A DNA stretch of 57,927 bases, the filler included, from Jimgerdemannia flammicorona (Eukaryota), in assembly GCA_003990765.1 (NCBI GenBank). It is 2 parts of 2 records of this genome, joined end to end, with 100 filler letters (N's around TTAATTAATTAA, not from the genome) between each part and the next. Parts side by side here need not be neighbours in the genome. Positions count along the whole stretch, not along the records: positions 29,015 to 57,927 come from RBNJ01000535.1; 1 more part is not named here. One strand, given 5' to 3'. How positions within the stretch are numbered: position 1 is the stretch's first letter; each line of letters begins with the position of its first letter. Position numbers and translations under genes: made by a program. Under the pieces are notes generated by a model. That model had not been told where the DNA came from and made no database searches. It saw only the letters and a list, made by a program, of their open reading frames with translations. Positions 1,727-42,480 of the stretch are shown piece by piece.

Positions 1727-1817
<91 letters not shown>

Positions 1818-18945: not shown

Positions 18946-19098
18946 TATTAAAATATCTTAGTTATAGCAACTTGATATATAGTGATATAGCCTGACTATA
19001 TCATTATGTAAATATTATCAATATATATATAAACATATAAGTTAGTATTAATAAACAATACTCTTCTTCCTTTTTTTGCTCTCAAGTATTTCACAACA
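18946..19098 (+). repeat. Copia 3' LTR
   Basis: TATTAAAATATC (TG>TA)...TCACAACA, following PPT gagcaggag. Confidence 0.9.
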
Positions 19099-19160
19099 AC
19101 AATAGAGGAACTAGTATCTATTTAAGAAGTATAGATAGATATACTCTGAGGACCTCAGTC

Positions 19161-19162
<2 letters not shown>

Positions 19163-19191
<29 letters not shown>

Positions 19192-22100: not shown

Positions 22101-24940
22101 CTCTCTCCACTTTACAATCTGGAACTGGATTCTTCTCTCCCAGAAATCCCACAGAGCAGTCTTGTCCAACAGAGAGAAGTTCAGGCACCAATATCCAGAC
22201 TCCTCTCCACTTCCTCCAAATCTCTCTCTTTTATAAACACCCTAATAATCTGACCAGGGGTACTATTCTACCTCCATTCTTTCCCAGACCATCTCCCCCC
22301 AGCACTCAGCAGTCAAAACCCAGTCAATCCTAGAGCCCAGTCCTCCTGCCCAATGTATATATATCTAATACTCACTACTCTATAGTCTCATAGCATCTAT
22401 TAGAGCACTAAGTCTCTCAATCTCCTCTTAGTCCTCCATTCCTCCACTTCTCTCCAACATCCCCCTTCCTCCATCTATCCTGTCCAGTCTGTAAATCCTG
22501 GATTATATTAAAGTCCCCACTCAGACAGTCTACCTTAGCTCCCACCAGAGCACCCAAGTCCTGTAATCTCTGTATTCATTCCACTCTGGCCCTCCTCTCT
22601 ACTGGATAGTATCAAGAGTTTACCACTATATTGCCCCAGCCCAGTCTCTTCCATAACCCTTACACCAATCTACTCTCTCAATGTTCAATGTCTCCAATAT
22701 TCCCCTTTCCCTTTCTGATCAATATTTTCATCTTTCCCTACCATATCACTGTCCTCCTCTACTCTCTTGTCCATTCCAATCTATTAACCTCAACCTCACA
22801 CCTTATATTCTAAAGTAGAAATACATCTGCATCCAGTTTCCTCAGCTAGCCAAAGATATTGCAACATCTCCCCACCCCTCAAAGTCCATTTACATTTATA
22901 GAGAATATATTGGTTATACTGTTCATAGTGAATAATGTTATGGAGGTATGAACCCACTCTATAATTTCATACTCACATTCTCTTCTACCATATCTAAGTT
23001 CTGCTCAGCCTCAATCTCTGTCTCCAATTCCTGCTGCTCATTTAGAGCTGCCAACAACTCCATACAGTCCTCTCCATCCACTATTTCTATAGATATATGT
23101 TACTTCTCACACACCACCTGCCACTTTGCCAGCCCATTCTTCAGCCCCCATAGATACACTACTCTATTATTTATAATACTCAAAAGAGTGCCTCTTGGGC
23201 CACATCCACCACATACTCCTCCTCCTCTAACAGTGCTGCCATCATCTCATCTCTCAGCTTCCTCACCCCCCCCCTCACCCTACAGTACCTCTCCCCAGAA
23301 GACCTCACTGATCACTTGAAAGTTTATCTTGCCCAACTCCTCCACTGCCACATTTATCATTATCTTCTACAGCTACTTCTCTCTACCAACTATGTATCTC
23401 CTCTCCCCAGGCTGACTCCTGCCCTCCAGCTCCCCTGTCCTCTCCCTCCTCAGCCCTCCCAGATTCATCTCATCTATCCTCTGACACATCCTATAACTCC
23501 TCTTCCCCAACTCCAGACCCCCTATACCTAATCAAAGCATTCTCTACCATCTCTATATCTGCTGTCACCTCCTCCAACTTCTGACCCTTGGCACTCTCCT
23601 GGTCTTCCCCTTGCTGCCCTGTCTCAGCCTATATACTAGCTCTCACACTCACTCTGCCAATTACCTTGGCTCTCTTCTGGACCCCTCCCAGACTTACCAA
23701 TAACTCTTTCTACATCTTTCTCTCCTGTGTCTTCTCCCAGAGAGCCTGACCCATCCACACCTTCTTACCATTAATAACCTCAACCACTGTTCTAGTCTTA
23801 TACTTCTTCCAAGCTATCTGCCTCCTCTTGACTACTCCCACTATATTCTTCAGTACCTCCAGCAAGTCCTCCTCCTCCTTTAGCATCCCTATCACTCTTG
23901 ATACCTTGCATTCCACAGATTTCTACCTCAGTACTACTAGCCAGTCCCTCTCTTTCTCAGTATTCTCTCTCTCTGCCAGCCTTACCCTGATATCCATATC
24001 TTCAGTCCTAAGCTCTGTCCCCTCTCAGACTTGAAATCTAACATCCACAATCTTGCTAAACTCCTTGACTACATCCTCCACCAATTGCCTAGTTTTCTCC
24101 TTCTTGATAGTTAGCAGGTCAGCCACTACCAGCTGTACCACCCTGAGGTCCCAGTATATATATCTCACTATTAGAACTACTACTCTCTTGATTCTTAGCC
24201 CCTTCTCAAAAGCCCCTAATAATAACTCCTCCTTCTCAAATCTCACCTCCACTGACTCAAGCTTTTTCAAAAACTTCACTGAGGCTATACCTTTCACTTT
24301 CTTTACCAAGAGCCTTAGCACTATCTTCACCATCACTATCAAGCCCCAGAAGTATATTATGACTATAAATTCAGATCTTGACTTCTTGAGTAATAGTACT
24401 ACTATCAATTCTATCACACTATTAGCAAGATTACTGGGTCTTGTGCCCTTCCCACAACTCAGTCTACCATCAGCAGTCCTATCTAGATTTTTTCCAGATT
24501 ACCTATCACACTCTTATCAGCAGTTACTTCTTCAGTTACTATACTACCAGCCCCACTACTCTGGCCCCCTAGAGGGGCTCTCCCCCTCTCTCCTGTAGCT
24601 ACCTTTTCCTTTCCCAGCTTTAGTTATCCATTCAGTCCTATCACCCAAGCTCCCATTTTGATCTTGTCTGCAAAGATCACTCAGCCAATCCCCTGCTGTC
24701 TCACTCCACCTCTTCCACCCCTGCCAGCCCCCCAGCCCCTCAGAGCAGTACTTGGAATCCCCAAACCTACACCTTGACCTCTTCTCACATACTGCTAGTC
24801 AAAGGCACTAGGGTTACCCTGCCTTATATACTCTCCAGATTGCTTATTGCTTACTATATTATTATTATCTTTTTACTGAAAACATTGTTTGAAGTATTGT
24901 CTGAGATTTATATAACCTGAATATTACTAGAGAAAGAGTT
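19163..24940 (-). mobile_element. LINE-A: full-length L1/Tx1-like LINE (ORF1 ~24560-22950, ORF2 EN-RT ~22925-19300), degenerate
   Basis: Poly(T) at 19163; degenerate TSD acctcagtcta / acttcggtcta (19152-19162, 24941-24951); APE motif NIFSINVNGL; RT motifs VFLDQEK, VPQGDPLSPILY, GAFAD, QYLEIYF. Confidence 0.9.
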
Positions 24941-24950
24941 ACTTCGGTCT

Positions 24951-25499
24951 ATATCAATTATCTCAAGATATACTTACTACCTATACAATGAACCAGAAGA
25001 TTGATCAGTACCTTCAGACTCTTGTTCTCAGTTCTTTTTAAGTCCTATCAATTCTCTTATCTCAGTTCTGAGAAATCAATAAAACCTATCTTCAATAGAT
25101 TAGATATACCAAGGAAATCTTATCTTAACAGAATATCTACTACAGATCTATCAACTATAGGTCTACTATGTAATTAATCAACTACTATAAAACCTTCTAG
25201 TCTCAGAACAGATATATATCTATAATACCACTGGTCTGTCTCAAAGGAATATTATTACTATAGACAGACTCTATACAATCTATAAATAAAATATTACAGT
25301 ACTGATCTAGGCTCAGTTCTCTCTAAATAACTTTTAAAAAATGACTATATCTATCTATCTGAATATTATTAATCATATTGAAGTTCTGTTCTCTGAGAAA
25401 GAAGAAGAGTTACTAGAATGGAGTAATTCAGATACTAAAAAAGATAATAGTACAGATATAAATATTGAAGATATCTATGAATACTATAATAATGACTAA
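24951..25499 (+). pseudogene. Accessory ORF between Gypsy-1 integrase and PPT (unknown function, acidic C-terminus)
   Basis: 183 codons in one frame with no apparent frameshift; stops are compatible with mutated CAA/CAG/CGA; ends ...EKEEELLEWSNSDTKKDNSTDINIEDIYEYYNND*. The N-terminal part is separated by LINE-A. Confidence 0.5.
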
Positions 25500-25539: not shown

Positions 25540-26639
25540 TGTGATAAGTAAATTATATAGTATAGCTAGATAATATAAATACTCAGCATAGTATTTATAT
25601 ATATCTAGTTACTTATATATATATATTACTACTTATAATTAGCCAAAGATACTAAATCAGATTTGTTGATCTGTGTTCTAAGGATATACCTGTGCTCACT
25701 AAATACATCTGTACTTAGTAGATATATCTGATCACTCTCTTCTCAAAACAGTATTACATACTATATATTTTATAGTTAGTTATATATATAGCAATTAGAT
25801 GGCAATCATAATTATATAAAATAACCCAGAGATAAGAGTAAATAAACCTCAGTTTGAAAAGTTCAAAAGCAAAAATCAATTATCTGATATACTTAAGAGA
25901 AATTCTTGCCAAAAGCCACTTAATCTAAAAAGAATTACAATATTTAAAAGATATATCTGCCAATAAGCTACTACTAAGAAGTTATGAGCTTTGCCCTATT
26001 CTCACTCTAGTCTACTTTCTGATACAAAGCCTGAGTTTACTGCCAAGTTCAAGTGAAGAACTTTACTAATCTGTTGCTTAAAAAAAAGCTACCATTTTCA
26101 AGAAGTCTACTTATATTCTCAATATAAAGTCAGTCTAATATAAGATATATCTTTGCAGTGAATCTATTCATACAAATGAAGCAGTCTTCAATATAACTTT
26201 ATTAGTCAGAGAAGTCCACTGATTCAGGAGAATCTGTTATTCTCAAGTAAACTGCTGATTTAGGAAGAATCCACATCCTCTGAATAGTCTGCCAAATTGT
26301 TAGCTTGCCATCTATTAAGAAATACTATCAAGATCAACAGACTATTATGCAGAAATTGCATACATAAGGAAACCCACTCACAGAAATCATTATGCAGAAA
26401 TTGCATAAGGAAACCACTCACATTACACAAAGATTGTCTGCCATCACCTGTCATACAAATTGCCACTACTCTCAAGAACCTGTCCCAAAAAGGAAATCAA
26501 CCACTTGTACTGCTAAACACCAAGGACATCAGGAATTATAGAACATTTTGTTGCTTTTTGACAAGTAACCGGGGGCTCAAGCCAATCTACATAGCAGCCC
26601 CAACCTTGTAATTTGCCTTTATTGAGCCGGCACGTTACA
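25540..26639 (+). repeat. Gypsy-1 3' LTR (1.1 kb)
   Basis: TG...CA; homologous to the 5' LTR; preceded by hairpin tagtctggagacagacta and purine tract aagtagagg. Confidence 0.9.
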
Positions 26640-28727
26640 ATACATTCCCATTTGCTTCATCTCGCATTTCGCGCGCTAGAGGGTGCGTCGTGATGCTCTG
26701 TGCATACTTCCCGAGATTCTTGTGAGTCCACAAATATGGGCCTTGACTACCTAGTGACGATCCACGTTTGGTATCTGGTCGATTCAAATTCTTCCTATTT
26801 TGCAATTTAACTCTTGCACATCACAATCGTCCATGACGAAGAGACGCGATTTCGAGTCATCACGATGACGTCTCCGCCAGGTGCTGGAATATGTCGTTCA
26901 CGTTATCAATTCGTAAACCCGATCAATCAGCACGTCTTCGTTCCGAGCGTAGTCGGCCTTGATATTTCAAGGTTTCACGGAACGCGTCGAGAGTTGCCTA
27001 CGATACTGGCAGCAACATTTTAATTTTTAATAAGCTCGCACCCTTGCCTTCGAGTATCACACGTCTTTCGATTGGCTGCCATGGATTGTCACATGCATCT
27101 CTTTCTCGGCTTGATAGGAACTAGGAAAATTTTCTTGTCAGCAGTTGGGGTTTTGGTCCGACGCGGAGTGGCAATGATTGACAGGGCCTGATTTAAAAAA
27201 TAAATAAAATAAATAAAATAAAATAAAATAAAATGAAAACCGAAATTGGCTGAGTGAACAAAATTCACTAAGGCCTTTGAAACCAACAAAACTCTCACCT
27301 CATTGGATATCGGAGCTAAGGGCGTAAAAGCATTCGCAAAACCAACAAAATTCTCACTTCATTGAATCTGCAGAACAATGAGATCGAAGATAAAAGCGCA
27401 AACGCCTTCAAGACTAACATAACTCTCAAAGTAGATTCGACGATATCCCGGCGATCTCCAGATTTGACCTTCAAAAACGAAACGAACGTTTTGGCTCACG
27501 ACATTTCTCATTGAGCTGAGATCTCGATGATTACATCTCTTACCAAAGGTCTTCCAGAAAGGCAGCACAACAATCAAGTTAGGATGGTGATACATAGTTT
27601 GCATCTATTTTTGCGGGCTTGTGTGGACGAGTAAACAACTCGTTTGCGGAGTGCTTGTAGGGACCGCAATTTATAAATCATATGTGGCTCGACGACCTCC
27701 GTCGTAATGTATTTATGTGTGCGGTAATAATTACTATGGAGAATTTCATGTAATCAAATCAGATGGCCTATCCTCTTTTTGCCGTCGAGTATTTTTGACT
27801 TGGTTTTTACGTGCTTTTAACCCTTCCATGTCGTTGCTTTGACTGGACAACGCGTAACTGCGCTCAAGACGCATGACGGGCGTTGGAAATGCTACTTTCC
27901 CTTAGATGGGACAAACATTGCCGTTTACTTTGACTCATTATTTTATGGCCCAGTTCTTCAACATGTTTGGTTTGTCATTTTGCGGTTCCACATAATTAAA
28001 ACCGCCATGCAGTTCGAAGTCGCTGCCCGGACATCTGAGGTTCAAAGACCGCTAATTCCCAACGCAATAATTAGAATTATTCGGTCCATAGTCTGTCCTC
28101 ACCGGCCGAGACGAGAGCTATCCACAACGTGTATGTATAATTTGGAAACACTCATTAACCTTTATGTATTTTTAGGTACGATGAACGTGGCGAGGTTATC
28201 GGCGACGGAGATTCCAGTCTTGTAGGTACTGGGCTGTATTGGTTGTAGTTTCCATGCTATGGCAGTATGCCGTATTACATGACTATCAAATACAACGTGG
28301 ACTTGGTTGTGGTAGACCACTATATGTGGTTAAAGTTTGGCTAGGAACCAAAGGAAGAGAACCAGCAACATCATCTCAAAATTATTTATGAGTTAAGATG
28401 CTGAATGTATTGTTCACATAAAAAGGAGGAGAGAGGCATATCACGTACACGTATTTATCAAGGTTGTATCGGTGAGCCAATACAACTAAATGTGAGGATT
28501 CTTGCCTCAGAAAAACGTAAATGCGAATACAACTGAAGAATGCAAGACCTCGACGGAAGGTAGAAGGGGAAAAAAGCTTTGGAACCCGCGAGTTCGATAT
28601 CAGCTAACTATATATCTGGCAACTGGTACCTTTTCACTTCTGCACGTCGACCTTTTACAGATGTCACCATGCCTGATGCATCCGTCCAAATCCGCGCCAA
28701 TATTGCCATGGTCACAAACAACATTTT

Positions 28728-28914
28728 GACACTCAGTATCATGTAAAGCCCTCATTCCAACACATCTCTCTCTTTCCACACAATCAACCAACTTAAGCAT
28801 ACTCCCATATCAGCCCCCTCCTCTCCCACCATAACCGTGGTAGGACTGATCCATATACAGAGAGGAAGATGCCAAGGTACCTCACCACCTCTCCTGCGGG
28901 GACAATTGTTCCAA
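28728..28914 (-). mobile_element. LINE ORF2 fragment at contig end
   Basis: Minus translation GTIVPAGEVVRYLGIFLSVYGSVLPRLWWE parallels LINE-A (IIVSAEEVVQYLEIYFSVY). Left boundary approximate. Confidence 0.75.
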
Positions 28915-29014
28915 NNNNNNNNNNNNNNNNNNNNNNNNNNNNNNNNNNNNNNNNNNNNTTAATTAATTAANNNNNNNNNNNNNNNNNNNNNNNNNNNNNN
29001 NNNNNNNNNNNNNN
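28915..29014. other. Artificial contig-joining spacer
   Basis: 44 N + TTAATTAATTAA (stops in all six frames) + 44 N = exactly 100 bp. Confidence 0.95.
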
Positions 29015-29034
29015 CCCCCCTTCGCCTTTCCCAG

Positions 29035-30936
29035 TTGCTTGTCCCGAACTTTCGGGTTTATTCTTCTCTTGGAACACTTTTGTCTCCTCCCTTTTCTTCG
29101 GCTGACTGCCCCCTTTCTCCCCTTCAAGTCTTTGCCTTATCCTTGGGTCCTCGCTTTGTTTTTCCTGCGACTCCCTCACAATTCTCCTTCACTGATCCGG
29201 CTCGTCTAACACGTTTTCGTCGTGCTCTTGACCTTGCTATCTTCTTTCAAGATCATGGTGAGATGCCCTCTCGCTATTTTGTTCCTAGCGATTGGGTCCC
29301 CCCTCCCAATGTCTCTTCACACTGCGTATTCCTCGACATGGCTTGCTCTTTGTCCGTTCCCGGACGTGCTGGCTCTTGCTTGGTTTCGGACCGTGCCGTG
29401 CGTACCGCGCTTAAATTGGTCAAGCAATTGCCTATGCATTTGCTCACAGTCACTGATAAGAATCAGGGTTTTGCACTTATTCCCAAGTCGCTCTACCTTG
29501 ATGGCCTTTCTGCCCTCCTTCGAGCCACGGCTTACGAGCCTAGTGCTCTTGGATTGGATGAGGTTCTTACTCTTCTTCGGGTTTCTCTGGCTCACGCTAG
29601 ATCGCTTTCGGATTCCCCGTTCGCGAACCCCATTTTTAACTTCTTCCAGGACTCTTTGTCCTCCCCGGATGTTTCTCTTCCAGTTTTCTATGCTCTTCCT
29701 AAAGTTCACAAGCCTCTTTTGGCTTGGCGTCCTATTACGGCTGCTTATAGTTCTCCTACCACCGAGATTTCGAAATGGTTATCCCGTTTCTTTCTCTCCT
29801 GGATGGCTCTCTTACAACACCGTCTTGGGCCTGAGTACACTATTCTTCGTGATACTCAGGAGCTCGCCCTTCTCTGCTCCACCATTGTGCCTGTTTACCG
29901 ATTTTCCCATTTGGCCTCTGGTGACTTCTCTTCCTTCTATACTGCTATTCGCTTTGATGAGATCGATGATTGCCTTCGCTTCTTGGGTTCCTTGGTTTTT
30001 CCCTTGGATTCTCCAGTTTCGTTGGCCTCCATCGTTGAGCTTACGCTCCTTGTCTGCGGCTCTAACTATTTTGAGTCGGCCCTTGGCTCCTTTCATCAGA
30101 CTTCTGGTATTGCCATGGGAACGAATTGTGCCCCCACCCTTGCCAACCTCGTTGGCCTAGCCCACGAATTGCGTGCGTTACGTGATATTACTTCACCTCT
30201 TTCCATTGCGTTCCGGGCTGGGGATATCTTCTTTCGCCGATACATTGATGACTTTATTGTCTTCGCTGTTGCTGGTGTTGATATCCCTAGTGTGTTCCAG
30301 GGCGTCTACCCTCCCCATCATTCTATTACTTGGGTGTGCAGTACGACTAGTATCCCCTTTTTGGACCTTTCCGTTTCTCTTTCTCCTTTCCGAACTGTTG
30401 TTTATTCCTGTTTTCCGCGTTCCCAACAGTTCCCTGACTTCTTGTCCAACCATCCTCGTCGCACTCTTCTTGAATGTGTTCGTGGTGAGGCTCGTCGTCT
30501 TGCATTATGCTGCTCCCGTCGTTCTGATTGGGTGTCTGCTGTTCGTGTTCTTGGCAACTTCGTGGTCCATCGTCATGCCTACCCAATTTCTATCGTTCGT
30601 GATCTGCTTGCTTCTGTTGAATGGTCTGTTGTTCGCTCTTCCCTCCTCTCTCCTCTTTATCCCCCCTCCCTTCCCTCTCTCCCCCCTTACCCTCTCCGTA
30701 CCCCCTCTTCTTTCCCACCCCCGATTCTTGTCGTACCATTTGATCGTGCTCGCTGGGTCGCTCAATGCCCTGATACCGTCCTGCGCTCATCTCTTTCATG
30801 CCATGGACTTTCATCTCTTTCTCGACGCCCTCTGATTGCTCGTTCGCGTCTTCCTTCTATTTCTTCTTCAATCCATCGCTCTCGTTTTGCGTTTTCGTCA
30901 CCTTCTGGTGCCTCCGGTTCTGCCGGAGAGGATTAA
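29035..30936 (+). CDS. Intact Penelope-like reverse transcriptase without GIY-YIG endonuclease (>=633 aa, 5'-open)
   Basis: LSLGPRF, TDKNQG, FYALPKVHK..WRPI, ILRDT, SGDFSSFYTAI, NYFES..FHQTSGIAMGTNCAPTLANL, RRYIDD, IPFLDL, SNHP..GEARR, LVVPF. The ORF ends after the thumb with no GIY-YIG motif. The frame is open back to the N gap. Confidence 0.92.
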   Translation: MLVPNFRVYSSLGTLLSPPFSSADCPLSPLQVFALSLGPRFVFPATPSQFSFTDPARLTRFRRALDLAIFFQDHGEMPSRYFVPSDWVPPPNVSSHCVFLDMACSLSVPGRAGSCLVSDRAVRTALKLVKQLPMHLLTVTDKNQGFALIPKSLYLDGLSALLRATAYEPSALGLDEVLTLLRVSLAHARSLSDSPFANPIFNFFQDSLSSPDVSLPVFYALPKVHKPLLAWRPITAAYSSPTTEISKWLSRFFLSWMALLQHRLGPEYTILRDTQELALLCSTIVPVYRFSHLASGDFSSFYTAIRFDEIDDCLRFLGSLVFPLDSPVSLASIVELTLLVCGSNYFESALGSFHQTSGIAMGTNCAPTLANLVGLAHELRALRDITSPLSIAFRAGDIFFRRYIDDFIVFAVAGVDIPSVFQGVYPPHHSITWVCSTTSIPFLDLSVSLSPFRTVVYSCFPRSQQFPDFLSNHPRRTLLECVRGEARRLALCCSRRSDWVSAVRVLGNFVVHRHAYPISIVRDLLASVEWSVVRSSLLSPLYPPSLPSLPPYPLRTPSSFPPPILVVPFDRARWVAQCPDTVLRSSLSCHGLSSLSRRPLIARSRLPSISSSIHRSRFAFSSPSGASGSAGED

Positions 30937-31111
30937 AAAACATCCTTGCCCCCTCTGGGGTCTCGCGCTCGCTCTGGGGTCTCAGCCTTACTCCGCTCCC
31001 CTCCGCTGCCTTCGGCCCCTCACTTCGCTCGGGCTCGCTGCAGCTCGCTCTGTTTCAGCCTCACCCCTCGCTCACGCTCACCCCTCCGGGGTCTGCAGAT
31101 GTTTTTTAATC
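30931..31111. repeat. 14-bp perfect inverted repeat enclosing a cluster of GC mini-hairpins in the PLE 3' region
   Basis: GATTAAAAAACATC (30931-30944) / GATGTTTTTTAATC (31098-31111). Inside: CCCCTCTGGGG, GCCTTCGGC, CCCTCACTTCGCTCGGG, CTCGCTCACGCTC, CCCCTCCGGGG. Confidence 0.85.
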
Positions 31112-31270
31112 TCAATTTGGATTTGTTTTGTTTGTGTTTGTTTGTGATTTTTATCCTGCAACTGGGATTGGCTCCCCTCTTATCTCCGCCTATCTCCGGC
31201 AGTCATGTGGTTCCTAATTCGGTTTGCCCCGAGTTGTGGCGCGTCCTCCCTTTTGGGACATCATATTTTG

Positions 31271-31364
31271 TATATAAGGACTGCGTTTTTACATGGCAAT
31301 AAACGGCTGATGCAAATTTGGTTACGTTCTTTGTTCGTCCCCCTTATACACGCTTTTCCACATG
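31271..31364 (+). promoter_or_regulatory. PLE pseudo-LTR promoter/poly(A) signals and downstream ATG
   Basis: TATATAAG 31271, AATAAA 31298 and ATG 31362, which opens MSSIRFDTGSGFAPLAPAGPSSSSF in PLE-like C/T-rich codon style. Confidence 0.55.
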
Positions 31365-32099
31365 TCTTCCATTCGCTTTGACACTGGCTCTGGGTTCGCT
31401 CCATTGGCTCCTGCTGGGCCTTCTTCCTCCTCCTTCCTATGTTATAGTGGAAGATTTTGTTCATCATTCACTGGAAGCTCACAGAGGCATTGCACATCCT
31501 GAATGACATTCACAGGTAGATGTATGTTCTGTCTGGAGTGATGAAGGCTAATTTCTCACTTAATGTTTCTGTGAGTCCAATTTGGTAAAATCCTGAGTAT
31601 AGATCCAAGGTGCTGTAGTACTGTGCTTCATCTCCCAGAGTTATAAGGTTGTTGTTAATGAGGGGCAGTGGTTGGCAATCCTTCTTGATAACTATATTGA
31701 GCTTTCTGTAATCAATGTAGAGTCTTGGGTAAATTCTCCAGGCTTGCTTCCTTTCTTTAGAGCTAGTATAACTGGTGAAGACCATGGTCTGCTCACCTCC
31801 TTGATGATACCAGCTTCTTCCATCTGCTTGATTTCTTCTCTGAGCCATTCTCAGTAGGCTGGTGGAACAGGTCTTGCCTTCTGGTAAATTGGTTCAGTAT
31901 CTCTGGAATCTATATCATGATAGTAGTATGGAGTCTTTCCTTTAATATCCTTGAAGCCTATGGTAAGAACATCTTCAAATTCATAGAGTATTTTCTTAAG
32001 CTCTGTCTTGAGTGGGAATTTATTTCTAATAGTATAGCTGTGCTTATTTGTAGTTTCTTCCTTATTGTGCTTTAGCTCAGTAATCTTGGTACTAGTAAA

Positions 32100-32500
32100 C
32101 ACTCCTCTTCTTATAGATCCAAATCCTTTCCTTTCCTTTCTCTTTCTGTTTTCTCCAACTTTTTGACTTCTATGATCCTTGGCTGAAGAACTGGGAAGAT
32201 CAACATCTGTACCAGTCAGTCTTTCTTCTTGATTGGAAATAGAATTATAGGATTGTAGTTTCTAGTAATAAGTAGTATTTCACCAATATAATCTGAATCA
32301 ATGACTCCACCTTCAATTGTGATTTCACTCCTAGCCAGACTACTTCTTGTCTTGAGGATTCTGTCATAGTCCTTTGGAATGGTTATCTCCAGACCAGTTG
32401 TAAGTAGGATGATTGTCTGAGGTTTGAGAACAGTTTCCTCTACTGTAGTAATATCCATTCCAGTTGTATTTTCTGACTTATATTATGGTAAGACTGTATT
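32100..32500 (-). pseudogene. Gypsy-2 dUTPase domain
   Basis: TGMDI, TTGLEITIP, KTRSSLA, EGGVIDSDYIGEI, KGFGS. Confidence 0.9.
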
Positions 32501-33257
32501 GGAATGAATCTTCTGAATCTTGATCTTGATTTCCTCTTCATCATTACTATCTTTGAGGAGAGCTGGTGGTTTATCATCCTCTTTCTCTTTCATTTTCTTT
32601 TCTTCTCTTACCTGTTTCTCAAGGGCCTTCTCTCTTCTTTGGTGGTAGATTCTCTTAATTTTGTCAGTATACTGGTAAAACTCATTGATATACTCTATAT
32701 AGTATATTCAGATCCCATGGGAGTAGACTTCTTGTAATATATATCTTTCCATAATCTTCTTTCATCAGTCTTCTTTACTCATCCATCAAATTTTCTTCTT
32801 CTTTTTCTGAGTTGTCACCATGTAGGCTTTCTTTTATTCACTTTCTTCTTCCTCTATCTCAGGCAGGACTCCTTTGTTGACATTGATGAGAATTTACATC
32901 TTCTGTCTGCTGTAGATAATCTGCTGTGACAAATACCAATTTGGTTGCTTTTTTAACTTTCCAACCTAGGCAGTCTACTGCTTTCTTGCTGAGAAGGCAT
33001 CCTCCTAATTCTGTATCAATGATAGTCTTAAAGACTCTATCCTCAATTTGGCAGATTGCATAGGTAGAGATTTTATAGTTATCTTTGCTTTCTTCTTCTG
33101 AGTCTTCTTGAACATTGTTGGTCTCAGTTATCTTCCATCCTTACTCCTTGGTTGTTTCAGTAAGTTCATATCTCATTTGCTGTCTGAATGTAAGTATTTC
33201 TGCTAGCTGGCCAAAGGTTATATTGATCTTTTGTTGACTGAGATCCATAAAGATATC

Positions 33258-35303
33258 TGTAAGAGAGTTACTTGTTAGAGTAACTATTACATAATTCTGG
33301 AAGGGATTTCTAGAATTTCTGGATATTCTAAAAGACTATTTTCTTAAGGTCAAGATAAATTTCATATGGAGTACATCTTCTATACTGATTGATTTTAAGA
33401 TCAGTTTGATATCTCAACCAAAGCTCTTATTCAGACTAGTTCTAGATATTCAGGATTTTCCATATTTCAGAGAAGTTCAAGAAACAAAGACCAGCTTAGT
33501 TGAATTGGCATATTACTGCAGACAATATCTAATTAGAAAATTTCATAATAGGGTTAGGACTGGGACTTAATGTGGAGCAGATTTACTTAAGAGTGGTTTG
33601 TGGGTTATTAAATAGGTTTATTTACTATTCATGTTATTACTATACTAGGAGTAGTTATGTGAAGAGATATTGTAGAGAAGTATTCAGGAATGTTCTTATA
33701 TGTTTGAGTCTGTTCAAGTCTGCAATTCTGAGGTCTGGAGAAGGGGGTATTTATACTAGTAAGGAGCTATTGGACTATATTAAATATGGAATAGCACTTA
33801 GCATCTTGCTGAGTCAGAATGCAGTCACATAGTACAAGTGTGATCTGATATATCAAGAGATTGTCTGACTGCTGAGTCAGTTAACAGTCACATCATATAT
33901 GGCTAATCTAACTATAGATTTAGACACTATCTGAGTAGTCTTCAATAATATCACCATTGATGATCTCATCTCTGATGAAGTAGTCATCTAGGAAGAGTTG
34001 TTTGCAGATTAATTCTTCTTATTTGCTAAGGTAATAATATATTGAAACTTTGTTGCCATTCTATAAGATAGCATCATCTGTCTCATATACTGGATATGGA
34101 GTTGGTGGGTGAAGGAGGAGTACATTATCTTCACTTTCATTGGATTCACTGTCAGCATACTTTCTATAGGTTATAGTACTATAAGTTGCAGGGTTGTAGT
34201 ATACTAGTGATTGTACTTTATATCACTCATACTCAGGTAGTAGAGTTATTGGTTCAATCCTGAGGATTGTCTGGAGATACACATTGTATTCTCTGATCTC
34301 TTCATTGTAGTTGAAGTAATCAGGGATAAATATAGGCTGGTATTCATAACAGTGGTCATTATCCCAATAGGTCTCATAAATGGTTATGAACTGTTGTAAG
34401 TTCATCAATAAGGTTGGCAGAGTAATCAGAGTTGGCAGGGATTTTTGACTCAAGGTGATGTCAGCCTCAGAGGGATCATTATCTTCTACTTTATCATCAT
34501 TGAACCAGATTATATCATAGATATCCTTCATGGCATATCTGACTTGGGACATTTGCAGAATGTAGTCATCAGGATGTGGGAAGGTTCTGTCTGTGGTTTG
34601 AATGTACTTGATGTACTTGTGGTTGAGTTTTTATATCATATTGTCAATTTGGCCATAGGATAGGGTAGCAACCATTTTAGCAGTAGTGACTCAGAGGTAG
34701 AGAATAAAGATACTGTACTCATAGAAGAGTTCTTGATATTTGTGGGCAATGAGTTTCTGGTGTTGAGATATCTGAGTAATATCTATATTATAGTGGTATT
34801 CAACCATATCTTCTAGGAGGCTGTCAATCTAGTAGTAGCTTGAGATTTGTCTGATTCAGTAGGCCTTACTAAGTATGTTCAGGGTATTCCATTAGGCTTT
34901 TATGAAGTAGAGGAATGCTAGGCTATGGATATTAATGAAGGGCAGAGGGAGTGTGGCTCAGTTAACAATGGCATTCCAAATGTCAGCATGGATCCAGTTA
35001 TAGATCTCTGTGGTCATATTTATGTATATGTTTAGGAGTTGGGGTTATTTGTTTAATTTGTTATTGAACACATCTCAGTGCTAGGTATATATACATTCAG
35101 TCTTGATTGGTAAGACTCCATTTGTGTAATTCTTGTGTTTTATGACTTCAAGTTAACTCAGCTTTGTGCACTGTAACTTCAGTTTGACTTAGCTTTATAA
35201 TTTACAAGTGATTTCCAGATTTGTTCAGAGGTTATATGTGATTTTAGTAGCTTGTTTGAAGGGTGACATGTGATTTCAGTAGCTTATAGGTTGTGCACTT
35301 ACA
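33258..35303 (-). repeat. Gypsy-3 3' LTR (2046 bp)
   Basis: Colinear with 42520-44574; TATAAATA on the minus strand at 33755-33748, downstream of the ORF. Confidence 0.92.
33920..35017 (-). pseudogene. ORF encoded inside the Gypsy-3 LTR (U3), unknown protein, ~320-365 codons
   Basis: MTTEIYNWIHADIWNAIVN...YETYWDNDH...DDYFIRDEIINGDIIEDYSDSV*. It spans 1098 nt, the same as the copy in the other LTR. Many internal stops differ between the copies (e.g. TGA/CAA, TAG/CAG). Confidence 0.8.
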
Positions 35304-35736
35304 ACTCTCCCCTTCTTAGCTTTTCATATCCTCATTGAGGTCATCTAGTATTATTATACCATTTGGATAGTCAAAAGTCCAGTAAGGTTCATTTTTTTCA
35401 GAAAGTGGCATACTTATAGTATAGTTGCCTAATATGTTAGATTCATACATTAAAGGGTCATATGTTTAATACTGTGTACTGGAAGAGATTCTAATGTCAT
35501 TTACTGCTGGAGAATTTTCTCTAAAGAATCTTCTTAATTATCTATATCTTATTTCCCATCAGTGGTATGAGAAGAATAGGCTGGCTTTCAGTATTGCTAT
35601 TTTTCTAGAGAGTTGGTATTTTATCTTAACTTGTTGAGTTCTTGATTTTATTTATGATAATTATAAAGGTACCTGATGTTCAGAGGTAATATATAGTATG
35701 TACTGATAGGTGCAGAAGTATTTGGGTTTCAGTTAT

Positions 35737-37007
35737 TTAAGAAATTATATTCCTAGACCAAATTAGTGGTATTTTGGAGATTGGTCTTGGGTTCTCATAT
35801 TGCATCATAGATTGGATAACCTTTCCATTTGACAAGGGTCTCAGGATGGTTTTTGTGGCTGTTGAGGATTTGTTCAACTTCATATTCTTCTTGGTCCTTA
35901 ATAATGATAGGTACAGATGGTTTTGCAGATCAGTTTGGAAATAGCTCATTGTCATTTTTATTATATTGCTTGAGACATTGGACATTGAAGACTGGGTGAA
36001 TCTTAATAGTATCTGGTAGTGCCAATTTGTAGGAGATTGGAGAGACTTGTATAATAACTTCAAATAGTCTAATAAATTTGCTGTTTAGCTTTATAGATGG
36101 TCTGTGTTTGAGGTTGTCAACTTGGTATCCTTGGATATCTAGTAGGACTTTTTCTCTGATGTCAAAACTTTCCTCTTGGTAGTACTGGTTAACATACTGT
36201 AACTGTTGTTCTTGAGCTTGCAATAAATTCTCAATTGCCATCTGGCTTAGATTGTATATTCAGATCAGGAATTCTTCAACAGCTTCAACTGTGAAGGGTT
36301 CATCAGTAGTTTAGATAAGTCTCAGAGAGGTGTTTGGGTTTTGTTCTATATTGGCAAAGAATGGGATCATTCTAAGAGAGCCTTGCTTACTGTTGTTGTA
36401 GACAAACTCAACTACAGTGAGGTATTCATGCCGATCACCTTGTCTGTAGAAAATATAGTTCTATAGCATTTGTTCTAGAGTTTGGTTCATTCTTTCAGTT
36501 TGGCCATTAGTTTTAGGGTGAAAGGCTATAGATAGTGCAAGTTTTGTTCCAAGGTATGTATGAAGGGCTTTTTAAAAATGGCTAGTAAATTTCATATCTC
36601 AATCACTAACAATGATCTTAGGAAGATCATAATAGTAGAAGATGTTATCAAACAAGAGTGTGGCTATGTCTAGTGCTATTGCAGTAGTAATAGTTAGTAT
36701 AAGTGAACTTGTTTGCTGAGAGAGTCTATGAAGACAACAATTGAATCTTTTCCTTTCTTAGTTCAGGGTAGTTGTATAATAAAGTTTATAAAATTTTGTT
36801 CCCAATTAGCAGATGGTACTGGGATAGGGTGGAGTAGGCCAGGTTTTGCTAGTGTTGAGGACTTGTTGCATTGGTAGGTATCACAGGAAGTTATGTAGGT
36901 CTTTAGCTGATCTGCCATATGGAGCCAATAGAAGTTTCAGGAAATATCTTTATAATATTTATCAAATCCTAATTGTCCAGCTATAGGGGCATCATAATAT
37001 TTGAAGG
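35737..37007 (-). pseudogene. Gypsy-3 integrase with C-terminal chromodomain
   Basis: YDAPIAGQLG..NFYW, CDTYQCNK, AFHPKTNGQTERMNQ, IHPVFNV, EEYEVEQILN..LVKWKGYPIYDAI*EP. Confidence 0.9.
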
Positions 37008-40000
37008 GACTCCTTTTGCTCAAACCATTCAGAGTGAGCTAAGCCACACGGACATCACTTCATGAAAAGTAATACATTTTCAAGTTTTCACTTTATTTAT
37101 ACTGGTGTATAAGGTGCAGCAGAAGTCTGACAACAGTTCACAACAAGTTTCTTCGAAATCTGTCAAGTTTTCGTGACATGGCGACCCAAGACTTGTCAAG
37201 CTCAGAGTGCCTAGAGAGGAGGAGGCCTGGCCTGGGCCTCTCTAAGAGTTTTGTGGCAGCTGCTGGTCAAGGTGAAGCTGGAGGGCAGGTGGGTGGTCAA
37301 GGGCCAGCAGCAGGACTGGATGGTTGGTGCATGGTGATGGAGAGTAAGTGGGCAGCCTCTAGGCCTATAGTGGGGGAGTAGCAGGGGCATAGTGTTAACA
37401 GGGGTGGATGTCAGGTGACTGGTCAGCTGACTGGCCAGGGACCCAGCAGGGGTCAGGGGTCCCAGGGTGTGATGATGGGGACTGGCTTTCCTGGGGCTGG
37501 ACCAGTGGCTGAGGGTGGGACTGCTGGTGGTACAGTAGCTCCAGATGAGGTTGTAACAGGTGTATCTGGCAGCAAGAATAAGGTGACTCTGGCAGCAGGA
37601 ACTGGGGAGCTGGTAGTACAACCATTCTTCCATAAGTCAGTATCGACTTGGACAGTGTCTGCCAATTTCTTGGGCTTTGGTTTGTTGGTCAAGAAAGTTC
37701 TATGACTGGTGGGTGAGGAGGTTGCAGGGGCTGAGTCGCTGAGGTTTATCCCCTCGGTGGAGGCAGTAGAGGTCGGATTTATAGAGGAGGAGGCTATGGT
37801 GAAGGCCTTGGAGAAGGGGCTGATGGTCAAGAATGTTAAGATGGGAATGGTGAGGTGCCTGAGATGGGACCCACATGTGGTGAGGTTAGTGGTAGAAGGA
37901 TTGCCGATGTTGAGCAGGTAGGAGACTAAGATAGTGATCGCCAAGGCACTGAAAGGCTTTGGGGAGATGGTGGATTTTGGATTTATGTTCTGGGAGGGTA
38001 TGAAGTTGAGAAATGGCAATTGTGAGGCAATGGTGTGGCTGGAGGGGAAGGAGATGACAGGCCTGGAGTGAGACTGGCCAGAGGTCATTCATGTTGGAGA
38101 GCAGGACTGTTGGGTCTGGAGGAGGAAAGGCTCTGAGCAGGAAGAGGAGGAGCTGCTGATAGCCCTTGAGGAGCATGATGAGGCGAAGGCTTTGCAGAAA
38201 AGAAAGTGAGAGGAATTCGCTAAAGATTGGATCTGGATTGAGACAGATGGCAAGAGGAAGCATTGGTATAGGGCAAACTGGGAATAGCTGCAGGCAGTGT
38301 TGCGAGCATCTTCAGAGGAGGAGGTTGAAAGAGTAGCATCTGACTGGAACCGAATGGAAGAGGTAGAGGTGGCTGAGGTGTCCTTCTCCCAGCTGGGAGG
38401 AGTGGGAGAATCTGCACATGCACCAGTGACTGGGAAGTGGGCAGATGGTGAGGAGGAGCAAGGAGGGGGCTTCAAAGATAATGTTGAGGTGGTTCTAGAA
38501 ACTCAGATGAAAGACATGGTGATGGCTAGATCAGTGAATGTATACTGGGAATGTCCTGAAGCAGAGGAGGTAGTGAGGTTGGATAAGATCTTGGAAGAGG
38601 ATGAGCTGGTGGATGTTGTCTCAGATGTATCTGCAGACAGGGAATTGCTTCAGGAGCTGTGCAGGACTCCCAGGCCTGCAACTCCAGGGCCATCGGCGAT
38701 GGTGGTGGATGGCTGATTCCAGGCAGTTCTGGAGGAACTGGCAGAGGACGACATTAAGGAAGTGGATGTATTTCAGGGCTCCCCGGAGGCATGGGAAGGA
38801 TTTCTCAAGATGGTATTGCAGGGACCGAAGCTGGTGACTGTGATGGTAGCAGCCCTTCTGGAGGATGAAGGGTATGAGGTGGATGATGGCTGAATGGCAG
38901 ATATTCATAAGGTGGTGTCTGAGTGAGTAGACCTCTTTTGTGGTAGTAATAATAGTGAGAGGATTTGGCAGACTGTTTGTGAGGAGCATCGAGACATCAT
39001 TAAGGGCTGAGCTGAGAAGGTGGTGGCAGTGGTGGCTGATATCTAAACTTCAAATTCTCCATGATGAAGTACAACCTACAAATTCTGTCAATCAACATCA
39101 ATGGTTTATGAGATAGAGTAAAGTGGTGGCATCTGTTTCAGTGGTTGAAAGTCCAGGAGTATGATGTGGTATTTCTTCAAGATATTCAGGCCTATGGTGA
39201 GGAGGATTATGGATCATAGAGTAAGGAATAGTTTAGAGATACTGGGTGGAGTAAGCAAGTTGGTATTTTGGTCGGGGTTGGAAAGGGAGAGTTAGTAGAT
39301 GTGGAATGTTTTGGTGATTGACTAGTGTGGGGCAGATTGAAGGGAGGAAAAGGAGATGGACTCTTGGTGGGCTCTGTGTATCTGCCAGCAGTTGGCAGAG
39401 AGCAAAAGCAATGGGTGGTGGAGTGGCTGGCTTGGGAGGATTGGGTGGCTCTAGGGTTAGACATTTTGGGGGGTGATTTTAATATGATTAGAGACTGTGC
39501 ACTAGATCGGTCTAATGGTGAGGCTGGTGTAGCAGTTTCTCCAGGGTTATCTCAGTGGCTTCAGGTGGAAAAGGGTATGGGATTAGTGGATGGTGTACAA
39601 TTGCAGGCAGGAGATAAGTCAGGCTCCTTTACTAGGTGGCATTCTATAGACAATGGGATGGTTGGCACACAGATTGATTGGGTACTGGTAGCTGAACATT
39701 GGGGTAATGTTTTCGATGCAGTCAGAGTACAGTAGTGTCCTTGGTCAGACCATTGGGGAGTTGAGGTGAGTGGATGATTCCAGGCTGTTAATGGAGGAGG
39801 TGGGTGCTGGCATCTTAATGTGGCTCTGCTTAGGTGTCCGGTGGAGCGAGAGCAGTTTGTGTACTTAGCCTGACAGGAAGTGGAGTGGTGGGTGGCTGGT
39901 GGTCTATCTATTGCTGATTGGTGGGGCAGATTCAAACACCTTGCTGGTGCATATTGGAGAGATACTGGGGAGGTGGCAGGGAAGGAGCATAAGGATAAGA

Positions 40001-41645: not shown

Positions 41646-42480
41646 ACTTGAGGTACTGGTGCAGAGTATTATGGTATTCTTTGAGTCTGTGTAAGTTGCT
41701 GGAGTAATAGTTATAGGTCTAGAGTAAGGGCTTGATTGATAGCTGTCTGTTGCTGTATAGGTGTATTCTGTCCTGATGGAGGTATGTCTCCTTCAGTAGT
41801 ATATCCAGGATCGAATTCTCTAAGATACTCCTCCTTCTCTTGGTTTTGGTCCCTGCGCAGTTGGGTTTGCTCAGCATTGAAATAGATAGAATCAGTTATA
41901 TATCTGATTTTGGATGGACTTAATTCAAAGTCAAGTTCTGCTTCAGTATTGATTTTGGGGTCAGGTAGAGCTGTAGCTAGGCCTGCTTCTGGTTCAGAGT
42001 CAGGTTGTTGATGAAGGGTTTCTCTTACTTCTTACTTAAGAATATAGTGGGCCTTACTATTCTGGAAGTAGTAGTATAATGCAGTCTTGGTCCTGGAACA
42101 GTGGAAATCAGTAGAGTTGAGCCACTTGGCTATGGAGACTTAGGATTCTTAGGTCGCTCAGATTTGTAGAGCTGACAAAACTCTTATTGAGAAGAGTGAA
42201 GAAGGCTTCTATAAGACCTCCTTTGTCTTGACTTGTGGGGTGTAGAGCAAGAAGTTCATTGTATAGGGTTTTGCCTATCTACAGATTTAATTGGAGTACT
42301 TCTTTCTTTGAATGAAGTCTGATCCACTTTTTATAGTATGGAGGTCAAATTGTCCTTATATATTAGGTTCAATTCTCTCCAGATTGTCAGATAGTTCAGG
42401 ACAAATTCCAGTTCAGAGGTTGGACTTTATACCAACTTGTAGAAATTCACAGAAGGGTTTGTAGTGGGGTGAGGAAGTAT
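41646..42480 (-). pseudogene. Gypsy-3 leader and gag N-terminal relic
   Basis: Follows the PBS. Minus frame reads ...EAELDFELSPSK...QQQTAINQAL...APVPQVPMPP up to the LINE-B junction. Confidence 0.55.

Follow-up and report, generated by a model that had tools for sequence, protein, structure and literature searches.

The element and its boundaries

The window, by which we mean the whole 57.9-kb stretch of Jimgerdemannia flammicorona DNA analysed here, contains on its plus strand a Penelope-like (PLE) reverse-transcriptase ORF (29015..30936) that ends in a TAA stop codon at 30934-30936 and whose 5' end is lost, being cut by the gap at 28915-29014 (runs of N with the linker TTAATTAATTAA). The motifs LPKVHKP and YIDD, which we take to be PLE hallmarks, are visible in the translation. 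The Pfam domain RVT_1 was matched below threshold (E = 0.0027, 17.9 bits, cut-off 29.6). A protein search with the ORF product gave seven matches at E <= 0.001, the best of them with 50% identity (to P0002) and the others with 26-31%, and two of the seven, P0003 and P0008, carry RVT_1 together with a C-terminal GIY-YIG domain; a further library search gave 3596 matches at the same threshold. Protein homology thus bears out the sequence-only reading of this DNA, in which the ORF had been taken for a PLE-type RT. No relatives were found when the ORF protein was compared with genome contigs and viral contigs, and among 574 candidate short protein fragments matching RT residues 470-633 none reached E <= 0.001.

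The GIY-YIG endonuclease lies C-terminal in canonical PLEs and N-terminal in Naiad/Chlamys. No endonuclease domain was detected C-terminal of the RT or anywhere else in the window, the N-terminus of the ORF being lost in the gap. Only one of 30 relatives scanned had a GIY-YIG domain, and the nearest long relatives in that set have N-terminal extensions of 350-600 residues in which an endonuclease is undetectable.

Downstream, past the cassette described below, the remaining inter-ORF (pLTR-like) region (31112..31432, plus strand) contains TATATAA (31271-77), AATAAA (31298-303) and an ATG at 31362, all three of them candidate signals judged by their sequence; the ATG opens an S/P-rich frame that reaches the 3' boundary of the element. 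We place this boundary at 31432..31433, according to loose ends of contigs from run X1 (three contigs diverge after 31432 and four before 31433) and a fall in CpG observed/expected from 0.7-1.2 to 0.0. It seems to fall within the putative ORF of a next unit, 71 nt past the ATG. Together with one inverted junction contig described below, and with the 5' side of the copy being an assembly gap, this gives a hint of the partial-tandem or inverted pLTR arrangement, with a 'tail', of PLEs. The PLE copy sits inside a CpG-free LTR-type repeat, and since its CpG is intact while the surrounding repeats have an observed/expected ratio of 0.00, the copy looks young. A telomeric location was rejected, as no runs of at least two TTAGGG/CCCTAA units occur in the window.

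A hammerhead ribozyme was sought with Rfam at E <= 10 over 28000-34000, which gave four sub-threshold matches, none of them a hammerhead and none within 30900-31450, and the hammerhead core CTGANGA is absent from the sense strand of 29015-31432. Naiads also lack hammerheads (PMC8557442), so a missing hammerhead does not exclude a PLE. The best explanation of the locus is a recently inserted Penelope-like retrotransposon in which both hammerhead and endonuclease are undetected.

An inverted repeat across the stop codon

The end of the RT ORF coincides with one side of an inverted repeat that delimits what we call the cassette. The left arm, GATTAAAAAACATC (30931..30944, plus strand), contains the last sense codon, GAT, and the TAA stop, and its perfect partner, GATGTTTTTTAATC, occupies 31098..31111; the arms are 14 nt each, 100% complementary and 153 nt apart, for a total of about 181 nt. 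This confirms an earlier description of a perfect 14-bp inverted repeat overlapping the stop and enclosing about 150 nt. The stem is AT-rich and is prolonged beyond small bulges by about seven further pairs, and its arms are the only A6/T6 runs within a GC-rich stretch. On the scale of the window such repeats (perfect, at least 14 bp, gap <= 200 nt) are not rare: two were observed against a mean of 0.205 in 200-nt block shuffles, and 18% of the 200 shuffles contained at least one. Inside the GC-rich element the repeat is unusual, as none of 1000 100-nt block shuffles of 29015-31432 reached 14 bp, the maximum being 12.

Two smaller inverted repeats lie next to the left arm. A hairpin CTCCGG-TTCTG-CCGGAG (30912..30928, plus strand), within the final codons of the ORF, is present as previously noted. 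A 10-bp perfect inverted repeat has its 5' arm at 30920..30929, 1 nt from the left arm, and its partner at 31193-31202; it forms an outer stem in the predicted 331-nt RNA fold (z -2.38; 0/100 shuffles as good), although by our own estimate chance alone would often produce a 10-bp inverted repeat with arms so far apart.

It is most improbable that the cassette serves in coding or processing, whether by promoting readthrough of the stop codon, by stimulating a frameshift or as an intron of the 3' UTR. The RT frame does stay open for 121 codons beyond its single TAA, yet all three sense frames are open in this region because purines are scarce, and the RT-frame translation of 30937-31299 gave no match at E <= 0.01 among 109 candidates. 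The heptamer AAAAAAC follows the stop, but does not share the register of the RT frame. In favour one may also count CTGCAG ahead of the right arm; the best GT...AG pair (30908-31098) yields D-V-F-stop. Moreover, reading the sequence with the TTAA-bounded unit excised leaves the stop intact.

Predicted folding of the cassette

The interior of the cassette (30945..31097, plus strand, 153 nt) consists of C 46%, G 23%, T 25% and A 6%, and is made of degenerate direct repeats (GGGGTCT, GCTCGCTC; GCTC-type) together with CCCC/GGGG blocks in symmetric placement; TRF called no tandem array in it. The strand asymmetry that had been attributed to the cassette does exist, but it is not specific to it, since the pyrimidine bias spans the whole element (68% pyrimidine on the ORF sense strand and 77% at third codon positions). 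No known structured RNA (ribozyme, SECIS or snoRNA) was matched in the cassette by Rfam at E <= 10. A tRNA or SINE origin was rejected, as there was no tRNA match, and so, on inspection of the sequence, was a Helitron end. G-quadruplex or i-motif patterns (four runs of at least 3 G or C, loops <= 12 nt) are absent from 30931-31111; two motifs of this type occur in the ORF tail (30661-30722).

The sequence-only reading had proposed a string of mini-hairpins on the minus strand, and all of the motifs that it listed are present (CCCC-GGA-GGGG, GCC-GAA-GGC, CCCC-AGA-GGGG, GAGCGTGAGCGA and CCCGAGCGAAGTGAGGG), with mini-hairpins on the plus-strand sequence at 30950-60, 31008-16, 31050-58 and 31081-91. 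The architecture built on them did not hold up, however, either by count (p ~0.06) or by nearest-neighbour energies. Hairpins with a 4-bp stem and a 3-5-nt loop number four (two distinct) against 1.46 +/- 1.25 in 2000 dinucleotide shuffles, 6.4% of which equalled or beat this count, and those with a 3-bp stem number 11 against 6.2 +/- 2.6, with 5.7% of shuffles reaching 11. The sequence GCCTTCGGC, as read, can close a cUUCGg tetraloop by one pair only, and a stem of 3 bp leaves a UUC triloop.

When the 14-bp stem with separate mini-hairpins was compared with one rod-like hairpin, the energies were -26.7 versus -63.7 kcal/mol for plus-strand RNA, +5.9 versus -29.7 for plus-strand DNA, -28.7 versus -80.6 for minus-strand RNA and +5.1 versus -35.0 for minus-strand DNA. 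All four strand and parameter combinations, calculated with parameter sets that give no special bonus to DNA GNA triloops, thus favour a single long irregular hairpin over a string of mini-hairpins. The whole cassette is predicted to fold better than its shuffles in each of the four cases (z -4.85 for plus-strand RNA, -3.62 for plus-strand DNA, -7.20 for minus-strand RNA and -4.22 for minus-strand DNA; 0/200 shuffles as good in each). The interior alone (30945-31097) gave z-scores of -1.24, -0.16, -4.26 and -0.89 in the same order, so that by these models it exceeds shuffles in structure only as minus-strand RNA. The antisense (cDNA-sense) strand gains 16 kcal/mol over the sense strand with RNA parameters and about 4 with DNA parameters, because internal loops there turn G/A-rich.

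Many of these properties could be those of a neutral passenger, that is, a low-complexity GC-rich segment of the untranslated region generated by slippage or template switching, clamped by a palindrome by chance and carried along without a role. Such an origin would agree with an interior of short degenerate direct repeats that is no more structured than shuffles as plus-strand RNA, plus-strand DNA or minus-strand DNA, with mini-hairpins at chance level, with a strand bias equal to that of the rest of the element, and with the lack of any protein, Rfam or tRNA match in the cassette. It would leave unexplained a perfect AT-rich 14-bp stem that 0/1000 local shuffles reached, its notable placement exactly at the stop codon, and a length that is constant and gap-free in copies up to 17% diverged, where a slippage-prone tract should vary. 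We regard a neutral passenger as possible if doubtful, and nearly as likely as the role in reverse transcription that we propose below.

The cassette in other copies of the element

Copies were compared among 193 contigs from four public sequencing runs (X1-X4, from three studies). In diverged copies, the left junction of the cassette is bridged by records 6, 7, 12 and 20, and the right junction by records 8, 13 and 25, from X1, X2 and X4. These seven records are 83-97% alike and six of them have no gaps; record 7 has 35 differences in 204 nt, likewise with no gaps. The only insertion inside the cassette among the 193 contigs is of 1 nt and is listed once. In a decayed copy in X3 the small hairpins are gone, owing to C>T and G>A changes, which shows only the decay of dead copies. 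None of the 193 contigs skips the cassette, and its best explanation is that of an integral part of the border between RT ORF and pLTR-like region, common to the family. A 23-nt pattern across the right junction had no match in genome contigs and viral contigs.

These comparisons bear on the alternative that the cassette is a small MITE or foldback element with flanking TTAA or TA, whose insertion into GATTAATC would have taken place in a family ancestor. Its ends can be read as TTAA/AAAACATC...GATGTTTT/TTAA, with GATTAATC as a palindromic empty site, and in its size of about 170-180 bp, its terminal inverted repeats and the TTAA on either side it is similar to known TTAA/TA MITEs. It differs from them in that no further copies or empty sites turned up, and in a GC-rich interior that shares the host element's sense-strand pyrimidine bias, which would be unexpected for a DNA transposon. 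The empty site, which had been suggested as a check on PLE copies, was looked for in the contigs and seen in 0/193; self-BLAST found no second cassette in the window, and matches to the terminus there at <= 2 mismatches number three, the two arms included, where 2.96 would be expected. Scanning metagenome contigs for exact arms gave two loci, both AT-rich with unrelated interiors. Furthermore, the flanking TTAA/TA belongs to the 14-bp palindrome itself and therefore cannot count as a separate target-site duplication. Since the cassette is skipped in none of the 193 contigs and has no other copy in the window, the MITE alternative is not supported, and we consider it very unlikely.

Two observations may concern copies that lack the ORF or are rearranged. 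Summed contig depth, a measure unsuited to ranking parts of one stretch, rises in X1 from 12.2 in the ORF to 24.5 and 67.4 in the cassette and then to 106 in the pLTR, and in X3 from some 4-5 within the cassette to 16.9 just past the right arm. Such a step could also come from pLTR copies that are solo or non-autonomous, or from further organisms present in the metagenomes. Among the 18 loose ends listed of 53, none marks a truncated copy in X1 that begins at the right arm. In addition, in one X3 contig the reverse complement of the left inner flank (16/17 nt) runs straight into the right arm, with the 3' flank behind it. This is a single read-length contig that contains adapter sequence, and it may have arisen as a chimera at the 14-bp repeat in the library, from a copy whose interior is inverted, or from a palindrome more perfect than the present one.

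Comparison with known systems

In stringent-type LINEs such as UnaL2 and CR1, a 3' hairpin, sometimes with a microsatellite, is recognised by the RT. The cassette resembles these in being a conserved hairpin with repeat-like sequence in an untranslated region of a non-LTR-style retroelement, whereas theirs forms the 3' terminus, at which the RT begins synthesis, and the cassette is 321 nt upstream, touching the stop codon. A further point of reference is given by purine repeats that self-pair, with tandem sheared G.A pairs, and by mini-hairpins of the d(GCGAAGC) type: the antisense strand has GAGC-type repeats, GCCGAAGGC and GCGAAGT, but the last lacks the closing C, and with DNA parameters the interior of neither strand beats shuffles. 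In the literature searched we found no described hairpin in PLE untranslated regions of fungi.

Hammerhead-bearing PLEs (Penelope/Poseidon, Neptune, Athena, Coprina) share with this element a PLE-type RT and a structured non-coding module between the stop of one ORF and the start of the next. Here, however, no hammerhead is matched by Rfam at E <= 10 and the sense strand lacks a CUGANGA core, and the module, a plain long hairpin nearly free of A on the sense strand, lies at the stop-codon end rather than at the ORF-start end. The earlier statement that the cassette is located where other PLEs carry hammerheads is thus loosely right, inasmuch as hammerheads are in the pLTR (PMC8557442), but the hammerhead of the one PLE studied in vitro extends over the beginning of the next ORF, at the opposite inter-ORF end (PMC11167929). 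The 3' boundary is comparable to that of PAc, which is 111-118 nt into the next ORF (PMC11167929), the element here seemingly ending 71 nt past ATG 31362. Athena and Coprina, which are endonuclease-deficient, are similar in the lack of a C-terminal GIY-YIG, as well as in the host, which here looks fungal, a likeness of features rather than a placement in their clade; they are telomeric, with reverse-complement telomeric repeats beside the hammerhead (PMC8557442), whereas the present copy is interstitial in an LTR-type repeat, with neither telomeric repeats nor hammerhead.

What is known of PLE biochemistry suggests two further readings. The cassette could be a cis-acting signal in the sense RNA, a long post-stop hairpin bound by newly made RT (cis-preference, RNP assembly). 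It directly follows the stop, and the protein would thus leave a terminating ribosome in its vicinity; as plus-strand RNA it folds with z -4.85; it is kept in diverged copies; and the PLE RT that has been studied in vitro binds its own RNA at a structured portion, with synthesis starting inside a stem-loop (PMC11167929). That site of binding and initiation, however, falls within the initial 172 nt of the following ORF and not behind the stop (PMC11167929), 321 nt separate the cassette from the 3' boundary at 31432, and the interior as plus-strand RNA is not above shuffles (z -1.24). We consider such a signal unlikely.

Alternatively, the inverted AT-rich arms might be paired nick sites, a landing pad at which self-targeted insertion would build up tandem arrays, as an identical ATT-containing sequence recurs on the two strands at a distance of 167 bp. 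In the case of the PAc PLE, a predicted dimer, each strand is nicked at 5'-ATT-3', within AT-rich DNA that lies a little downstream of the junction between its own ORF and pLTR (PMC11167929); the arms are, as noted, the sole A6/T6 runs in their GC-rich surroundings. Yet the element has no endonuclease domain that we could find (none at the C-terminus, and the N-terminus is lost in the gap), GIY-YIG occurs in only 1/30 relatives, and insertion at the arms was seen in 0/193 contigs. A landing pad therefore seems to us improbable, to about the same degree as a MITE.

A possible role in reverse transcription

Our tentative preference, which falls short of being probable, is that the hairpin at the ORF/pLTR border acts as a roadblock or hinge in reverse transcription and gives rise to 5'-truncated and fold-back copies. 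Synthesis of cDNA from the 3' side would run into the hairpin, where the element's RT would often halt or switch template, so that numerous copies would consist of the pLTR part alone; now and then the arms would fold back and give inverted copies. In an element without the usual hammerhead, the hairpin could thereby influence how pLTRs come to stand in the partial tandems and inverted orientations that PLEs typically show. Heavy truncation at the 5' end, partial tandems and neighbouring 5'-truncated copies in inverted orientation are known features of PLEs (PMC8557442). The rise in depth from ORF to pLTR in X1 and X3 is what would be expected from 5' truncation at the hairpin, and the inverted junction in X3 is the one predicted for a fold-back at the arms. 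In favour of a roadblock we also count a stem beyond local chance, a whole cassette that outfolds shuffles on both strands, its retention in the family, the absence of a hammerhead and the youth of the copy; against it, the listed loose ends mark no X1 copy truncated at the right arm, and the interior alone does not go beyond shuffles in three of the four strand and parameter combinations. Moreover, stalling at a roadblock would be an effect that selection need not have favoured. Roles in RT recognition, template jumping or end protection, as suggested in the sequence-only reading, are possibilities of a similarly hypothetical kind.

A stronger version of this idea would see the cassette as a functional replacement in PLEs without hammerhead or recognisable endonuclease, namely a G.A-stabilised cDNA hairpin whose arms snap back and prime the second strand, or mediate template jumps, yielding inverted and partial-tandem pLTRs. 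This we hold to be quite unlikely.

The mobility of PLEs is poorly understood, only one PLE protein having been studied in vitro (PMC11167929), and the origin of their tandem and inverted terminal structures is an open question (PMC8557442). The cassette is a concrete, testable cis-element in this context, since the element described here is a young, CpG-intact, hammerhead-free copy with a conserved long hairpin exactly at the ORF/pLTR border. If the cassette is neutral, it is an ordinary feature of one transposon family. If the hairpin merely stalls reverse transcription, it would still explain why pLTR-only copies outnumber ORFs, and if the snap-back reading is true, it would be a direct source of the inverted and partial-tandem pLTR structures that are the unexplained hallmark of PLEs.

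A hairpin-forming module at the end of the RT ORF

A long hairpin-forming module sits exactly at the ORF/pLTR border of the Penelope-like element (PLE) copy at 29015-31432 (sense strand +). As the sequence-only reading had noted, a perfect 14-bp inverted repeat overlaps the TAA stop codon and encloses about 150 nt: the left arm, GATTAAAAAACATC (30931-30944, +), and the right arm, GATGTTTTTTAATC (31098-31111, +), both found by an inverted-repeat search, are fully complementary over 14 nt and stand 153 nt apart. A sense-strand ORF ends at 30936 inside the left arm, with GAT as its last coding triplet and the stop at 30934-30936. The 6-bp hairpin CTCCGG/CCGGAG described upstream of this cassette is likewise present (30912-30928, +), and CTGCCGGAGA at 30920-30929 pairs without a mismatch with 31193-31202 over 10 bp. 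Sense-strand base composition of the interior is C 46%, T 25%, G 23% and A 6%. Short, degenerate repeats in direct orientation (three copies of GGGGTCT, plus GCTCGCTC-like units) make up its sequence, and TRF reported no tandem array in it.

Window-wide, such repeats are not rare: two perfect inverted repeats of at least 14 bp within 200 nt were observed in the whole 57.9 kb, versus a shuffle mean of 0.205, and 18% of 200 block shuffles had at least one, the chance repeats coming from AT-rich DNA. The sole other one in the window with a gap of at most 200 nt (7241-7259 / 7272-7290) has arms of about 19 bp and AT-rich surroundings. Within the GC-rich element, 14 bp was reached in none of 1000 local-composition shuffles (maximum 12). 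The whole cassette also folds better than dinucleotide shuffles, with z-scores of -3.6 to -7.2 across both strands and RNA and DNA parameters, and none of 200 shuffles folding as well in any strand/parameter combination. The interior alone shows no excess structure over shuffles, antisense RNA excepted (z -1.24 for + RNA, -0.16 for + DNA, -0.89 for - DNA and -4.26 for - RNA).

The cassette had been read as a string of mini-hairpins, and every motif listed is indeed there, but they are not in excess of chance (four matches with 4-bp stems versus 1.46 +/- 1.25, reached by 6.4% of 2000 shuffles; 11 with 3-bp stems versus 6.2 +/- 2.6, reached by 5.7%) and the fold is energetically disfavoured, a model of stem plus mini-hairpins lying 35-52 kcal/mol above the minimum-energy fold in all four strand/parameter combinations. 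The minimum-energy fold is a single long irregular hairpin, comprising the 14-bp stem, small bulges and about seven further pairs, and then GGGG blocks of one half pairing with CCCC blocks of the other. Since the energy models used give no bonus to DNA GNA triloops, the mini-hairpin fold could still form in ssDNA. With RNA parameters the sense and antisense folds are 16 kcal/mol apart, with DNA parameters about 4; on inspection of the structures, the difference stems from internal loops rich in C/T on one strand but in G/A on the other. That the cassette is a neutral, stem-clamped low-complexity segment is doubtful, yet nearly as likely as the role in reverse transcription that we tentatively prefer (below).

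Element class, strand bias and CpG content

Protein homology agrees with the earlier assignment of the ORF (29015-30936, +) to a Penelope-like reverse transcriptase (RT), though its Pfam RVT_1 match is under the cut-off. The ORF is 50% identical to the library protein P0002 and 26-31% identical to six others, two of these seven having RVT_1 plus a C-terminal GIY-YIG. Altogether 3596 library proteins matched at E<=0.001, and 30 relatives, the top-ranked and long ones from the best 150 of these, were scanned for domains: RVT_1 was present in 22, GIY-YIG in one and no family in eight, and the long relatives among those scanned have N-terminal extensions of 350-600 residues. The 5' end of the RT ORF is lost in a scaffold gap (28915-29014), which consists of two N runs flanking a six-frame-stop linker, TTAATTAATTAA, and whose flanks may be non-adjacent in the genome. 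Because no endonuclease domain follows the RT or occurs elsewhere in the window (the ORF N-terminus being missing in the gap) and GIY-YIG was present in just one of the 30 relatives, the element appears to resemble endonuclease-less PLEs, a likeness in domain content that leaves aside its own missing N-terminus. The window has no telomeric repeats. A Kelch-like ORF near the element, matched in a protein atlas, hints at a fungal source and is a lead only.

Strand asymmetry, which had been attributed to the cassette, is real but element-wide: pyrimidines make up 68% of the RT ORF's sense strand (77% at third codon positions, where A is 8%) and 71% of the cassette. This agreement argues that the interior is a long-standing part of, or derived from, the retroelement rather than a recently inserted DNA transposon. 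Purines are extremely scarce in the coding strand at 29035-30933 (A 12.7%, G 19%), so all three sense frames are open; P0002, unlike the element, has an ordinary K/N/E/I-rich composition. In the low-complexity C-terminal tail of the ORF, two sense-strand C-run motifs (30661-30722) would correspond to antisense-strand motifs of the G-quadruplex type.

Over tens of kb of repeats (5000-26000 and 31433-57927) the CpG observed/expected ratio is about 0.00, as against 0.85-1.3 in the gene-like window start (1-5000) and in 26000-31432, which includes the PLE. CpG erasure in the window's repeats seems to be near-complete. The PLE copy looks young, with its CpG intact, and seems either to have escaped this erasure or to be very young.

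Retention of the cassette in diverged copies

Word shares with the stretch were 0.17, 0.05 and 0.05 in three of five sequencing runs. Four of the runs, soil metagenomes plus one run labelled with an organism, belong to three studies, and 193 of their contigs aligned to the window at >=80% identity (159, 6, 25 and 3 by run). The left junction is spanned by records 6 (30730-30960, 10 differences), 7 (30865-31068, 35), 12 (30771-30983, 17) and 20 (30790-30955, 28), and the right junction by records 8 (31088-31240, 13 differences and one gap), 13 (31089-31295, 13) and 25 (31053-31220, 5). No contig among the 193 joined across the cassette, and the sole length change listed inside it was a 1-nt insertion in one contig; of 345 differing positions, 40 were listed. 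Thus, copies with up to 17% divergence retain the module, its length unchanged.

The proposal of a TTAA-flanked MITE fared poorly on the same evidence, and we consider it very improbable. Besides the lack of an empty site among the 193 contigs, the window holds no second copy, and an exact-arm scan of metagenome contigs found two loci, both with unrelated AT-rich interiors. The TTAA "duplication" belongs to the palindrome itself, and excising the TTAA-bounded unit leaves GAT TAA, so the stop codon was not made by the cassette.

Summed contig depth is about 12 (run X1) and 2-9 (run X3) over the ORF and 67-106 (X1) and 12-18 (X3) over 31103-31450, the step falling inside the cassette in X1 and directly after the right arm in X3; this is only a weak hint, since contig depth is no basis for ranking one part of a stretch against another. 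One read-length X3 contig (at 31098-31170) has adapter, 17 nt and then the right arm and 3' flank, those 17 nt matching the left inner flank of the cassette in reverse complement (16/17). Four readings fit this single contig: a library chimera, a fold-back product, inversion of the interior, or a palindrome more perfect in that copy. In another X3 copy the small hairpins have been destroyed by C>T and G>A decay.

The 3' part of the element and its surroundings

We placed the 3' boundary at 31432/31433, inside a CpG-free LTR-type repeat, on the basis of composition, loose ends of X1 contigs (three diverging after 31432, four before 31433) and a drop in CpG observed/expected from 0.7-1.2 to 0.0. 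The first three carry other sequence beyond 31432. Between cassette and boundary lie TATATAA (31271, +), AATAAA (31298, +) and an ATG (31362, +), from which an S/P-rich frame stays open until the boundary cuts it. This order fits a pLTR promoter followed by the next unit's ORF start. By inference, 30937-31361 forms the inter-ORF (pLTR-like) region, and this copy breaks off 71 nt inside the ORF of the next unit.

Further downstream, 32920-33257 is an inverted relative of 56586-56932, and the G-rich block at 37-42 kb lies between the two copies (33260-35304 and 42522-44575) of a 2-kb direct repeat, 82.5% identical, which may represent a pair of LTRs or a segmental repeat. Three GC-skewed blocks (19000-25000, -0.36 to -0.63; 37000-42000, +0.36 to +0.50; 48000-52000, -0.44 to -0.56) are 64-74% alike, have low-complexity long ORFs and are poor in CpG (observed/expected 0.12-0.21 in the second block, about 0.00-0.03 in the other two); they may represent another strand-biased repeat family. 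Translations at 55446-57926, read by eye, suggest ORFs like those of LTR retrotransposons, with what read as a CCHC zinc knuckle, a DTGA motif resembling that of aspartic proteases and a dUTPase-like end.

Comparison with other PLEs and a possible role

In PAc, an Anolis PLE studied in vitro, the stem-loop in which reverse transcription begins lies 111-118 nt inside the ORF (PMC11167929); similarly, our copy seems to end inside the next ORF, at 71 nt. The element is without a hammerhead: an Rfam search of 28000-34000 at E<=10 gave four sub-threshold matches, none in 30900-31450, and CTGANGA is absent from the element's sense strand. The cassette had been placed where other PLEs carry hammerheads, which holds in the sense of "in the pLTR", where PMC8557442 locates them, but not for the exact site: the PAc hammerhead overlaps the ORF start (PMC11167929), so that the cassette and the hammerhead occupy opposite ends of the inter-ORF stretch. 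By analogy with PAc, where ATT is nicked at the ORF-pLTR junction, the arms might be paired AT-rich nick sites, though we hold this to be very improbable. An RNA signal bound by the RT, as first suggested, is somewhat less unlikely, whereas a recoding or splicing signal is the least credible.

Our search of the literature, of limited coverage, found no description of a hairpin module at a PLE stop codon; we regard the element as a PLE whose pLTR holds a structured module of a different sort. Our preferred though tentative reading is that the cassette is a roadblock and hinge for reverse transcription. A roadblock at the cassette would yield copies of the pLTR only, and arms folding back would yield inverted copies, both of which are known for PLEs generally (PMC8557442).
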